Part shown: piece after piece, positions 53,555 to 62,631 of the stretch
Layout of the letters: every line of letters begins with the position of its first letter
How positions within the stretch are numbered: the first letter of the stretch is position 1
Source of the DNA: a candidate division WWE3 bacterium
GTDB lineage: Bacteria > Patescibacteriota > WWE3 > UBA101185 > UBA10185
NCBI GenBank assembly: GCA_003599255.1
Contig: QZJF01000016.1
Span: 863-64,862, forward strand
Reading direction: 5' to 3'
Length of the DNA stretch: 64,000 bases
Translations under genes and position numbers: made by a program
Notes under the pieces: model-generated
Databases searched by the model: none
Told to the model about the DNA's origin: nothing
The model's input: only the letters and a program-made list of their open reading frames with translations

Positions 53555-55024
53555 TGTTGAGAATTTGATCCTAGTTCAGGGTGAACGCTAGCGGTGTGCC
53601 TAAGGTATGCAAGTCGAGCGATGATTTGTTTTGATTCGGAGTTCCGCAAGGAAATCCGTTGAAGAACTTTTCATAGCGGCAAACGGCTGAGTAACACGTT
53701 GGAACCTACCCCTAACTTGAGGATAGCCCCGGGAAACTGGGAGTAATACTCAATGTGAAGGTAACTTCAAAGCAGCAATGCGGTTGGGGATGGGCCTGCG
53801 GCCTATCAGGTAGTTGGTGGGGTAAATGCCTACCAAGCCTATGACGGGTAGCTGGTCTGAGAGGATGATCAGCCAGAGGGGTACTGAGACACGGGCCTCA
53901 CTCCTACGGGAGGCAGCAATCGGGAATCTTGCGCAATGGACGAAAGTCTGACGCAGCGACACCGCGTGGAGGATGACGGCCTTCGGGTTGTAAACTCATG
54001 TTAAGAAGCACCGGCTAACTACGTGCCAGCAGCAGCGGTCATACGTAGGGTGCAAGCGTTACCCGGATTTATTGGGCGTAAAGAGTTCTGTAGGCGGCTT
54101 TACAAGTCAGAGGTCAAATACCCCGGCTCAACCGGGGGAAGGCTTTTGATACTGTAGGGCTAGAGATGGTCAGGGGACAGCGGAACGTACGGTGGAGCGG
54201 TGAAATGCGTTGATATCGTACGGAACACCAAGGGGGAAGCCAGCTGTCTGGGGCCCATCTGACGCTGAGAGACGAAAGCGTGGGGAGCGAAACGGATTAG
54301 ATACCCGTGTAGTCCACGCCGTAAACTATGTCTGCTAGATGCCCGCATTAGTGGGTGTCGAAGCTAACGCGTTAAGCAGACCGCCTGGGGAGTACGGTCG
54401 CAAGGCTAAAACTCAAAGGAATTGGCGGGGACCCGCACAAGCGGTGGAGCATGCTCTTTAATTGGCTGATAACCCAAGAACCTTACCAGGGCTTGACATG
54501 TAAGTAGTAAGAAGCTGAAAGGCGGATGACCGGCTTAATAACCGGAGCTTACACAGGTGTTGCATGGCTGTCGTCAGTTCGTACCGTGAGGCGTACCCTT
54601 AAGTGGGTTAACGAACGCAACCCCTACTGTTAGTTGTATCACTCTAGCGGAACTGCCGCCGCAAGGCGGAGGAAGGTGGGGACGACGTCAAGTCGGTATT
54701 GCCCTTACGCTCTGGGCTAGAAGCATGCTACAATGGCCGGTACAACGGGCAGCGACATCGCGAGATGAAGCTAATCCCTAAAAACCGGTCCCAGTTCGGA
54801 TTGGAGTCTGCAATTCGACTCCATGAAGTTGGAATCGCTAGTAATCGCAGGTCAGCTATACTGCGGTGAATACGTTCTCGGGTCTTGCACACACTGCCCG
54901 TCACGCCAGCAAAGCTGGGGCCACCCAAAGTCTCATCTAAGATGGGCCCAAGGTGGAATCAGTGATGAGGGTGAAGTCGTAACAAGGTAGCCGTAGGGGA
55001 ATCTGCGGCTGGATCACCTCCTTT
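53555..55024 (+). rRNA. rrs: 16S ribosomal RNA (about 1.47 kb)
   Basis: 5' ...TTTGATCCTAGTTCAGG. Conserved blocks GTGCCAGCAGCAGCGGT and GCATGGCTGTCGTCAG. 3' GGATCACCTCCTTTCT. Confidence 0.9.
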
Positions 55025-55253
55025 CTAGGGAGAAAACACGTATCTTTGATTGATGGAATCTTGTGTTTGCTATACGCAAACAAAGGCCATTGAAATAGAA
55101 GATACAACATATATCCGATAGCTCTGAGGATATGTGTTTTAGGCTGTTATGTGTTGCCTCACAACAGCTGAGCAAGTTCGACAGTAAGCTTAAACTGTCA
55201 AAAGAAATATTCTTCTTGCCTTTTGGATCTTGAAATTTATATTGTTTGAAACT

Positions 55254-55622
55254 TTAGGACCTGGCTCTATCTCTGTATTCGTAACCAAGCATAATTAATT
55301 TTTGCTTCTGTTCATCATTTAAGTCTTTCCCGATTTCCTGCAGGAAGTCCTGCAACATTACTCTAATTGATTCTTCCAGATGTGTTTGGATTTCATCCTC
55401 TTTCCAGTATTTTTTAATAACCTGAGTTAATTCTTCAATATTGGCTGTTGGTGTAAAAATTTCATCAGAGCCTATTTTAGATTTAGTATCAGCCCCAAGT
55501 CTTAGAACAGCATTCCTGAATATCTTATCTGCAACATCTGTGGAAACTTCGTCTGCATTGTCAATTCCAATGCCGTTTAATAAATCAAACAAAAATTGTT
55601 TTAAAAGATTTTGATCATTCAT
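55254..55622 (-). CDS. hypothetical protein (antisense to rRNA orientation, in 16S-23S interval)
   Basis: 122-aa ORF whose start overlaps the upstream ORF stop (ATGA coupling). Confidence 0.35.
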   Translation of the reverse strand: MNDQNLLKQFLFDLLNGIGIDNADEVSTDVADKIFRNAVLRLGADTKSKIGSDEIFTPTANIEELTQVIKKYWKEDEIQTHLEESIRVMLQDFLQEIGKDLNDEQKQKLIMLGYEYRDRARS

Positions 55623-56035
55623 TACGATTCCTTTTCCTGTTGATTTTCAAAATGTTCTGCTGCTCTGCCGAAATATCTCGACATTCCATAGCCTACTGCG
55701 GCGCCGATGCTGCCAGAGATCACTCCGGCAGGGTTCCCGGTCACGGCTCCAATTGGAACTGTACCGGCTGACATGCTTCCCGTAACCAAAGTGCCTTTGC
55801 TTAGCGATTTAGCCAATTTTGCTCTTTCTTCATCTGTTTCTGCCCCTTTCTCAATATACTTTATTGCCATCCCTAATGCCGCTTCATCCATTCTTTCCAG
55901 CCAACCGCCTATAGTTTGCTTAATAGTTTCCATGTTACTAAGTTGTTCGGGTTGGGATATATCCGCAACACTTTCTGTTGCGTCTTCCGCCGAAAAATTC
56001 TCGTGTTCTGCGTCGTCTTTTAAAAACTCACTCAC
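55622..56035 (-). CDS. hypothetical protein with C-terminal glycine-zipper hydrophobic segment
   Basis: Acidic N-terminal half, then GTLVTGSMSAGTVPIGAVTGNPAGVISGSIGAAVGYG (GxxxG repeats). GTG start; start uncertain. Confidence 0.35.
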   Translation of the reverse strand: MSEFLKDDAEHENFSAEDATESVADISQPEQLSNMETIKQTIGGWLERMDEAALGMAIKYIEKGAETDEERAKLAKSLSKGTLVTGSMSAGTVPIGAVTGNPAGVISGSIGAAVGYGMSRYFGRAAEHFENQQEKES

Positions 56036-62200: not shown

Positions 62201-62385
62201 CGCTGGGTAGCTACGTTTGGACGTGATAAGTGCTGAAAGCATCTAAGCACGAAGCATACCCCAAGATGAGACTCTTTCAGCTATAAGCTGACGCAACTCC
62301 TGGGAGATTACCAGGTTGATAGGCTGCAGGTGTACGCACAGCAATGTGTTTAGCCGAGCAGTACTAATGTTTGCGCGTCTTCACC
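59255..62385 (+). rRNA. rrl: 23S ribosomal RNA (about 3.1 kb; ends approximate)
   Basis: 5' GGTGGATGCCTTGGG. Internal conserved blocks: GTACCGTGAGGGAAAGGTGAAAAG, sarcin-ricin AGTACGAGAGGACCGG, and GCTGAAAGCATCTAAG. 3' region GTACTAATG. Confidence 0.85.
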
Positions 62386-62514
62386 TATGAAGTCATAGAG
62401 AAGAGTTTTTGTATTCGGCTTTAGCCGCTTTACGCGCTTGCGCGAAAGGGGCCGGAGGCCACTTTTATTCAGTTTTTAGAGGGTACGAACATTAAAAATA
62501 AGTTTGTGTTCAGC

Positions 62515-62631
62515 ATCCCGGTGATGATTGCGATGGGGCATCACCTCTTCCCATTCCGAACAGAGAAGTTAAAACCATCAGCGCCGAAAATACTTGACAG
62601 AATGTCTGGGAAAATAGGTCGTCGCCGGGAT
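62515..62631 (+). rRNA. rrf: 5S ribosomal RNA
   Basis: Terminal helix atcccgg.../...ccgggat. Internal CCGAACAGAGAAGTTAA. Confidence 0.8.

Follow-up and report, generated by a model that had tools for sequence, protein, structure and literature searches.

The 16S and 23S ribosomal RNA (rRNA) genes of a candidate division WWE3 bacterium (contig QZJF01000016.1, assembly GCA_003599255.1) are separated by several protein genes and by an isoleucine transfer RNA (tRNA) gene on the opposite strand, which raises the question of whether this arrangement is an artifact, a recent insertion or the regular organization of the locus in its lineage. We analyzed the 64,000-nt stretch between positions 863 and 64,862 of this contig, here called the window, whose first letter is position 1. 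The arrangement is probably the normal, vertically inherited rRNA locus of WWE3 (Katanobacteria, within the candidate phyla radiation (CPR)/Patescibacteria), in which the classical operon would be split into at least three adjacent transcription units.

Organization of the rRNA locus

The rRNA and tRNA genes were placed with Rfam and ARAGORN, and all three rRNAs are end-to-end matches to their models (Table 1). The interval from 16S to 23S has 4,232 bp and contains five open reading frames (ORFs), tRNA-Ile on the minus strand and tRNA-Ala on the plus strand, the latter located 91 nt 5' of 23S; the window shows one 23S-5S copy. The initial annotation, made from the letters alone, had put the two large rRNA genes about 4.2 kb apart, with coordinates that were right to within 2 nt. 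It had also listed two minus-strand ORFs, a NUDIX hydrolase, a membrane protein and a YvcK-like gene, all five of which were recovered in the ORF map and in the gene calls of the Joint Genome Institute (JGI) on an identical contig. Its order of an opposite-strand tRNA-Ile(GAU) followed by tRNA-Ala(+), 23S and 5S was found again by ARAGORN and Rfam.

Table 1. Coordinates of the features of the rRNA locus and of other features in the window, and of X-tail copies in other contigs (named in the position column).
Feature	Position	Strand	Evidence and remarks
bpsA-AdoMetDC fusion, 439 aa	52019-53338	+	PF01861 (BpsA_C, branched-chain polyamine synthase) and PF02675 (S-adenosylmethionine decarboxylase)
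Promoter-like site, 16S	53367-53395	+	TTGACT-17-TGnTATCTT; putative function
16S leader-trailer stem, 5' arm	53520-53573	+	54-nt inverted repeat, 76% complementary to 55185-55238
16S rRNA	53553-55024	+	RF00177, 1382 bits, model 1-1533
16S leader-trailer stem, 3' arm	55185-55238	+	pairs with 53520-53573
orf122, 122 aa, species-specific orphan, convergent with 16S	55254-55622	-	codon log-odds 0.34; not in relatives' spacers
orf137, 137 aa, orphan, Gly-rich hydrophobic C-terminus	55622-56035	-	codon log-odds 0.41
NUDIX hydrolase (MutT-like), conserved passenger 3' of 16S	56110-56529	+	PF00293, E 8e-15
tRNA-Ile tail duplicate (T-loop half to ACCA, about 22-24 nt)	56541-56564	-	candidate X-tail remnant, 47 nt downstream of the tRNA
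tRNA-Ile(GAU), antisense to the rRNAs	56613-56689	-	ARAGORN; Rfam tRNA 67.9 bits
Promoter-like site, tRNA-Ile	56703-56732	-	TAGACT-18-TGnTAGAAT, 13 nt upstream of the tRNA
Membrane ORF, 351 aa, three N-terminal hydrophobic segments	56766-57821	+	no Pfam match
yvcK, UDP-GlcNAc-binding protein family, conserved spacer core	57831-58829	+	PF01933 (CofD superfamily); TIGR01826
Promoter-like site, tRNA-Ala-23S-5S	58826-58854	+	TTGACA-17-TGnTAGAGT
tRNA-Ala(UGC)	59090-59165	+	Rfam, ARAGORN
23S leader-trailer stem, 5' arm	59175-59200	+	26 nt, 88% complementary to 62461-62486
23S rRNA, 3,131 nt	59257-62387	+	RF02541, 2476 bits, model 1-2925
23S leader-trailer stem, 3' arm	62461-62486	+	pairs with 59175-59200
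5S rRNA	62517-62630	+	RF00001, 80 bits
orf320, 320 aa	50956-51918	+	about 50% G+C, genome about 40%; no Pfam domain in JGI calls
tRNA-Ile, anticodon UAU	19272-19347	+	ARAGORN; Rfam tRNA 69 bits
tRNA(CAU)	22581-22654
tRNA(CAU)	22757-22832
X-tail copy	L085 3476-3573	+
X-tail copy	L091 2293-2452	-
X-tail copy	L091 4130-4227	+
X-tail copy	L007 1667-1787	-
X-tail copy	L089 1121-1241	-
X-tail copy	L003 1027-1124	-
X-tail copy	L088 9678-9801	-
X-tail copy	L004 3521-3636	+
X-tail copy	L081 6815-6946	-

Independent assemblies and conservation across relatives

Short-read metagenome assemblies typically break or mis-join at rRNA genes, and many related contigs end inside 16S or 23S; a mis-join or chimera at these genes could therefore yield an apparent 4.2-kb spacer. 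However, contig Ga0104761_1000119 of JGI 3300007354 and the window share 16,170 nt at 100% identity, and a contig of sample 3300038436 differs from the window by one base, inside 23S, so that two samples give the same 16-kb sequence with one single-nucleotide polymorphism (SNP). The same order is found in at least 18 distinct related sequences, which come from many samples and assemblers, and the region from bpsA, the gene directly upstream of 16S, to 5S is unbroken on one contig in L087, L092, L097 and L099 (L numbers designate loci on other contigs). In addition, the spacer genes follow the codon usage of the host, and the processing stems described below pair across each rRNA. Because independent assemblies and many species agree on the layout, mis-assembly, which the initial annotation had named as grounds for rejecting its proposal, is excluded, and an artifact retains practically no probability.

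Relatives were sought through YvcK in one genome per GTDB species and in a metagenome scan. All five of the closest metagenome-assembled genomes (MAGs), with a YvcK identity of 54-60%, carry yvcK between the 16S end and the 23S start, with a minus-strand tRNA-Ile(GAU) just 5' of it, and tRNA-Ala(+) is found downstream of yvcK in the four whose contigs reach that far. The metagenome scan gave about 20 more contigs with the same order, which makes about 25 related contigs with 18 distinct YvcK sequences and the shared core 16S(+) ... tRNA-Ile(-) - yvcK(+) ... tRNA-Ala(+) - 23S - 5S. Spacer lengths in these relatives are 2,578 (L086), 2,758, 3,418, 3,577, 3,946 and about 4,270-4,292 bp, and more than 9.9 kb in L005, where 6.4 kb of minus-strand genes separate yvcK from tRNA-Ala. 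The tRNA-Ile gene is on the minus strand in every relative examined. An invertible segment around this tRNA was also considered and rejected, as no bounding inverted repeats were found.

A neighbor-joining tree of 139 YvcK sequences, based on this single gene and not bootstrapped, grouped the 18 distinct spacer-embedded YvcKs in one clade with no outsider, and this monophyly indicates a single origin. More distant YvcK loci show no rRNA within 10 kb. Furthermore, the yvcK genes of L102 (903-1868, YvcK identity 57%) and L158 (4747-5475, 60%, partial) have no rRNA or tRNA nearby, so lineages exist at a similar YvcK distance in which yvcK lies outside the rRNA locus.

The gene upstream of 16S encodes a fusion of a branched-chain polyamine synthase and an S-adenosylmethionine decarboxylase and was found at this position in all relatives with enough flank; its closest named BpsA homologs belong to candidate division WWE3 (64% and 53% identity). 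The block MnmA - M23 peptidase - bpsA - 16S - NUDIX is more widely conserved and was found in contigs retrieved through BpsA homologs. In the window, orf320 lies within this block, upstream of bpsA, and two tandem relatives of orf320 (33-34% identity) occupy the same position in L083.

Two loci extend the comparison to the wider WWE3-like set. L165 shows 16S - NUDIX - two minus-strand genes - tRNA-Ile(-) - tRNA-Ala(+) - 23S - 5S, with a spacer of about 2.8 kb, the two tRNA genes back to back and no yvcK. L166 shows 16S - two minus-strand genes - tRNA-Ile(-) - yvcK(+), followed by glycosyltransferase and rhamnose genes, with no 23S within 3.5 kb. Since the long spacer and the antisense tRNA-Ile are kept in these loci, they are traits of the lineage, and it is the insertion of yvcK between tRNA-Ile and tRNA-Ala that characterizes the clade of the window. 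A species tree would be required to order the gains and losses.

These comparisons refine what had been proposed from the window. The inversion of the spacer tRNA-Ile holds for the window as for its relatives. An insertion or inversion in an ancestral operon is consistent with the data, but not as one recent event, because the antisense tRNA-Ile and the long spacer are shared across WWE3-like genomes. Likewise, the locus is non-canonical relative to textbook bacteria, whereas within its lineage the layout is the norm.

Promoter-like sites, processing stems and putative transcription units

Promoter-like sites are located upstream of 16S, of tRNA-Ile and of tRNA-Ala. The motif type of the first recurs 5' of 16S in L083, L087, L088 and L092. 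At the tRNA-Ile position, 12 of 16 non-redundant relatives carry T[AG]GACT-N17/18-TGnTAAAAT, a motif with just 13 matches in 349 kb. The -35 hexamer of the third site (TTGACA, 58826-58831) contains the TGA stop codon of yvcK, and the site also lies at the 3' end of yvcK, within its last codons, in L086, L087 and L088. Of 12 relatives, 8 have comparable sites within 300 nt upstream of tRNA-Ala; their density there, 2.5 per kb, is about 7 times the background of 0.34 per kb.

Both large rRNA genes are enclosed by leader-trailer inverted repeats. The 16S stem has a duplex z of -3.9 in the window, -5.7 in L083 and -6.7 in L087; because its 3' arm lies at 55185-55238, the pre-16S transcript should extend to at least 55238. 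The convergent orf122 has its stop codon 16 nt beyond this arm. The 23S stem has duplex z values of -5.5 to -8.5 in the window, L087, L092, L097 and L099, and of -3.2 in L086, with compensatory differences between genomes.

On the basis of these motifs and stems, we propose that 16S would be transcribed from its own promoter and processed through its own leader-trailer stem, and that its transcription may stop before or within the convergent orf122. The tRNA-Ile(GAU) gene would be expressed on the opposite strand from a dedicated extended -10 promoter. The promoter of a third unit, tRNA-Ala-23S-5S, would lie where yvcK ends, and its transcript would be processed through the canonical leader-trailer stem of 23S. 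Separate promoters, some of them divergent, would serve the protein genes, and the DNA between units would be a tolerated landing zone for ordinary protein genes. The initial annotation had described 16S as effectively unlinked from 23S-5S; the internal transcribed spacer (ITS) of 4.2 kb, which exceeds 1,500 bp, the conserved promoter-like sites and the separate stems all bear this out, with firing of the promoter motifs and separate transcription of the units predicted from sequence.

Several observations weigh against this interpretation. Promoter-like matches in the region number 16, against 15.2 expected by chance in shuffled sequence, so the promoter case depends on the sites keeping their positions in genomes that are related and not independent. 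Prediction of intrinsic terminators gave none downstream of the 16S trailer, yvcK or 5S and, together with the chance-level promoter density, this leaves room for read-through from 16S into the NUDIX gene or from yvcK into tRNA-Ala-23S. The 16S leader-trailer pairing was not significant in the duplex test of L088, L092, L097 and L099. Furthermore, the assignment to WWE3 is based on the names of BpsA homologs and on synteny, not on marker-gene phylogeny, and an ancestral canonical rrs-tRNA-Ile-tRNA-Ala-rrl-rrf operon is presumed, its polarity being assumed.

The same lack of predicted terminators, here between the plus-strand genes, would suit a locus that is still one long operon, in which the 16S promoter drives the NUDIX gene, the membrane gene, yvcK and tRNA-Ala-23S-5S and the internal sites are only auxiliary. 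All these genes share the orientation of 16S with short gaps between them, and in L083 and L099 the NUDIX gene begins just past the 16S trailer on the same strand. Such a transcript would, however, face head-on the well-coded convergent genes at 55254-56035 and the antisense tRNA-Ile with its conserved promoter-like motif, and a strong conserved motif precedes tRNA-Ala. In L166 other genes follow yvcK, with no 23S within 3.5 kb, and in L005 the 6.4 kb of minus-strand genes come before tRNA-Ala; moreover, Borrelia, with an analogous layout, makes separate transcripts (PMC3037291). A single long operon is thus unlikely, and at least three units, with 16S, tRNA-Ile and tRNA-Ala-23S-5S apart, remain the interpretation that we favor.

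Protein genes of the spacer

A codon-usage log-odds score was trained on 18 long genes of the window, which themselves score 0.20-0.34. Values of orf122, orf137, the NUDIX gene and yvcK are gene-like (0.25-0.41), and that of the membrane ORF is weaker (0.14). The start and stop of orf137 and orf122 overlap by one base, and the two genes are translationally coupled. Neither has a Pfam, NCBIfam or PHROG match, and a word-indexed search of 5.8 billion proteins found nothing but the self-match for orf137.

The NUDIX protein passes the general NUDIX domain alone; with the equivalog of MutT (8-oxo-dGTP diphosphatase) it scores 53.5 bits, below the cut-off of 97.9. Its orthologs (46-89% identity) are found after 16S in L083, L006, L007, L091, L099, L164, L165 and others. 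The YvcK protein of the window scores 297.3 bits with TIGR01826 (cut-off 196) and only 23 bits with CofD proper (TIGR01819, cut-off 257).

For the membrane ORF, the word-indexed protein search gave the self-match alone, while an exhaustive HMMER search found full-length distant homologs (21-30% identity, E down to 7e-11), one of them encoded in an ordinary chromosomal context. Because these homologs exist, the gene model is credible despite its weak codon score. The gene is called differently in the second sample; a premature stop there was rejected as the cause, as the sole SNP falls in 23S. A phage or defense origin of orf122, orf137 and the membrane ORF was also considered and rejected, with no PHROG, Pfam or NCBIfam match for any of them.

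Clustering of the ORFs over 20 spacer loci showed YvcK in all 20, a weakly HAD-like hydrolase of about 207 residues in 14 and NUDIX in 10. The remainder are mostly singletons, which include an alpha-2-macroglobulin-like giant, Memo, an M42/M28 peptidase and a RibD_C/DHFR protein. No counterpart of orf122, orf137 or the membrane ORF was found in any relative's spacer examined. Genes thus come and go in the spacer while its skeleton stays fixed: the NUDIX gene, which is old, and yvcK, which is old within the clade, are stable residents, and orf122/orf137 and the membrane gene are species-specific additions. The HAD-type gene, which resembles the nucleotidase YjjG, lies between NUDIX and tRNA-Ile in L099 (9001-9624, plus strand) and 13 other loci and is not in the window; this gene and NUDIX may form a pair for nucleotide house-cleaning within the spacer.

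A tail duplicate and a structured element downstream of the tRNA genes

A 38-nt direct repeat (56527-56564 and 56598-56635) with a 22-nt exact core places a second copy of the tRNA-Ile 3' end 47 nt beyond the gene, and repeats of 20-24 nt follow tRNA-Ile and tRNA-Ala in relatives. This is an att-like signature and, with orf122, orf137 and the membrane ORF being species-specific, it could suggest that the extra genes arrived recently, on an integrative element targeting the tRNA-Ile 3' end, as a transient strain-level insertion. With only 47 nt between the tRNA and its duplicate, however, no cargo is bounded by the repeats; over all the repeats found, just 47-194 nt of non-coding DNA lie between them. 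Moreover, the conserved NUDIX gene stands between the tRNA and orf122/orf137, and the membrane gene is on the 5' side of the tRNA. No integrase, transposase or phage match was found among the five ORFs, which have host-like codon usage, and no integrase among the spacer ORFs of relatives, whose core layout is ancient. We consider such an insertion quite improbable, and the data agree better with a vertically inherited locus that has gained and lost genes.

Relatives show a conserved structured element of about 100-160 nt, here named X-tail, located 25-60 nt downstream of a tRNA gene and in the tRNA orientation. It folds as a three-way junction with the order 5' arm, GAGAAUGCC, hairpin 1, GAGGCGGGGUCG, variable hairpin 2, GGUGAC and tail. 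The tail is identical to the last 21 nt or so (T-loop half to CCA) of whichever tRNA precedes, and the 5' arm complements the initial 6-7 nt of this tail. X-tail was found downstream of tRNA-Ile in L003, L007, L088, L089, L091 and L095, and downstream of tRNA-Ala, within the tRNA-Ala-23S spacer, in L085, L091, L097/L004 and L007. The units are sometimes in tandem, the distal copy then being decayed.

In an alignment of eleven copies, which was fitted to the model so that the counts lean towards structure, pairing holds in 94% of cells, compared with 79% after shuffling and 21-43% for slid controls. Double changes were found in 8 of 16 pairs, including those of the arm-tail helix, which tracks the different tRNAs; covariation thus supports the three-way junction. 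A covariance model built from eight copies (R1) also gave a match after tRNA-Arg in a Moraniibacteriota MAG (38.6 bits, E 1e-8). With this model, the putative remnant in the window (56527-56612) scores 6.7 bits (E 0.4), which is not significant. The elements of L007 and L089 have no Rfam match (cmscan, E up to 1), and with no ARAGORN tmRNA or Rfam match we rejected X-tail as a transfer-messenger RNA (tmRNA), permuted tmRNA, known ribozyme or known small RNA. The attP of a catalogued virus was rejected as well: pattern scans of IMG/VR gave one true match, L168, and seven others failed the covariance model.

L168 (2837-3188, minus strand; IMGVR_UViG_3300033463_005745) is a contig of higher G+C, not CPR-like and catalogued as viral, and carries an X element of 51.6 bits and a decayed tandem copy. 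In the 3.3 kb examined there is no tRNA and no integrase, and the neighbors are cysE-, galE- and cytidine-deaminase-like genes. In view of this element, the X-tail family may extend beyond CPR and beyond tRNA genes.

We tentatively suggest that the tRNA-Ile duplicate of the window could be a decayed trace of this undescribed family, which might be either a T-loop-targeting miniature mobile element, with the 5' arm as target guide, or a tRNA-linked small RNA co-transcribed at the level of rRNA. If true, either possibility might contribute to the plasticity of the spacer and, if confirmed, X-tail would be a new family of tRNA-associated RNAs or mobile elements.

Other features of the 23S gene and of the window

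The 23S gene exceeds its 2,925-position model through several short expansion segments within 59257-62387, the largest of about 100 nt (window about 59560-59660, near model positions 283-312). An intron or homing endonuclease was rejected as the cause of its length, as the alignment shows short lineage-specific expansions with no ORF. In contrast, the 23S of L165 spans 4.65 kb and bears an intron, with genes for LAGLIDADG_1 and LAGLIDADG_2 proteins found inside the 23S of a sibling contig. Elsewhere in the window, a tRNA-Ile with anticodon UAU, an uncommon bacterial way to read AUA, is found near two tRNA(CAU) genes (Table 1).

Implications for amplicon and genome surveys

WWE3 spacers that range from 2.6 to more than 9.9 kb and contain protein genes imply that rrn-operon amplicons (long 16S-ITS-23S products) will be absent or wrongly sized for this lineage. 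Where a MAG pipeline breaks contigs at rRNA genes, yvcK and the NUDIX gene would be lost, or a marker-free spacer fragment would be binned. With yvcK, a cell-envelope regulator, and NUDIX resident in it, the locus is also an example, open to testing, of protein genes located where the genome is transcribed most strongly.

Comparison with known systems

The WWE3 locus shares with the canonical rrn operon its gene set, the order 16S, Ile, Ala, 23S, 5S, the position of tRNA-Ala directly 5' of 23S and the RNase III-type leader-trailer helices around 16S and 23S. It differs in the spacer, which in the canonical operon has a few hundred bp (at most 1,500 bp) with tRNA genes only and is about 10 times longer here, with five protein genes and putative internal promoters. 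It also differs in the tRNA pair, which canonically lies on the rRNA strand, tRNA-Ile(GAU) being inverted to the minus strand in the window and tRNA-Ala remaining on the plus strand.

The proximity of NUDIX and yvcK recalls the Bacillus subtilis yvcI-yvcJ-yvcK-yvcL (whiA) cluster, in which a NUDIX hydrolase gene (yvcI) also lies near yvcK. Unlike that cluster, the window has neither rapZ/yvcJ nor whiA, and its NUDIX gene and yvcK are parted by the antisense tRNA-Ile. Furthermore, the WWE3 NUDIX gene is linked to 16S even without yvcK, as in L165.

Unlinked rRNA genes are a known class, of which the window locus is a further case. They were defined by an ITS longer than 1,500 bp and found to be common and phylogenetically conserved in Patescibacteria (Brewer et al., 10.1101/705046), although most unlinked cases had an ITS of more than 6 kb, with a mean of about 410 kb (10.1101/705046; ISME J 2020). 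The window, in Patescibacteria and with an ITS of 4,232 bp, agrees with this definition, and its arrangement is conserved within the clade over about 25 contigs, as well as in the WWE3-like L165 and L166. It differs from the class in that 16S and 23S remain neighbors in the same orientation. Spacer content, antisense tRNA-Ile and yvcK are not described in that survey (10.1101/705046), and our literature search found no publication describing the WWE3 layout or yvcK within an rRNA spacer.

The closest likeness is to Lyme-group Borrelia, which has a 3-5 kb rrs-rrl spacer with tRNA-Ala, mag, cof and an opposite-strand tRNA-Ile (PMC2688082; PMC4370689, Fig. 1 legend). In B. burgdorferi, three transcripts were found by reverse transcription PCR: 16S-tRNA-Ala, tRNA-Ile and 23S-5S (PMC3037291). 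Both systems show a long spacer with protein genes, mag and cof/HAD in Borrelia, and NUDIX, a HAD-like gene in most relatives and yvcK in WWE3, and both have an antisense tRNA-Ile between 16S and 23S-5S. However, the tRNA-Ala of Borrelia follows 16S and is co-transcribed with it, while that of WWE3 precedes 23S, and the tandem 23S-5S copies of Borrelia contrast with the single copy of WWE3. Because the passenger genes differ and the phylum is unrelated, the resemblance is convergent. By analogy, the Borrelia precedent would support three transcription units in WWE3, which would then be the second independent case, after Borrelia, of a 16S / antisense tRNA-Ile / 23S-5S split in a reduced-genome, probably host-dependent bacterium, and would fit the idea that single-copy, slow-growing organisms tolerate the loss of rRNA co-transcription.

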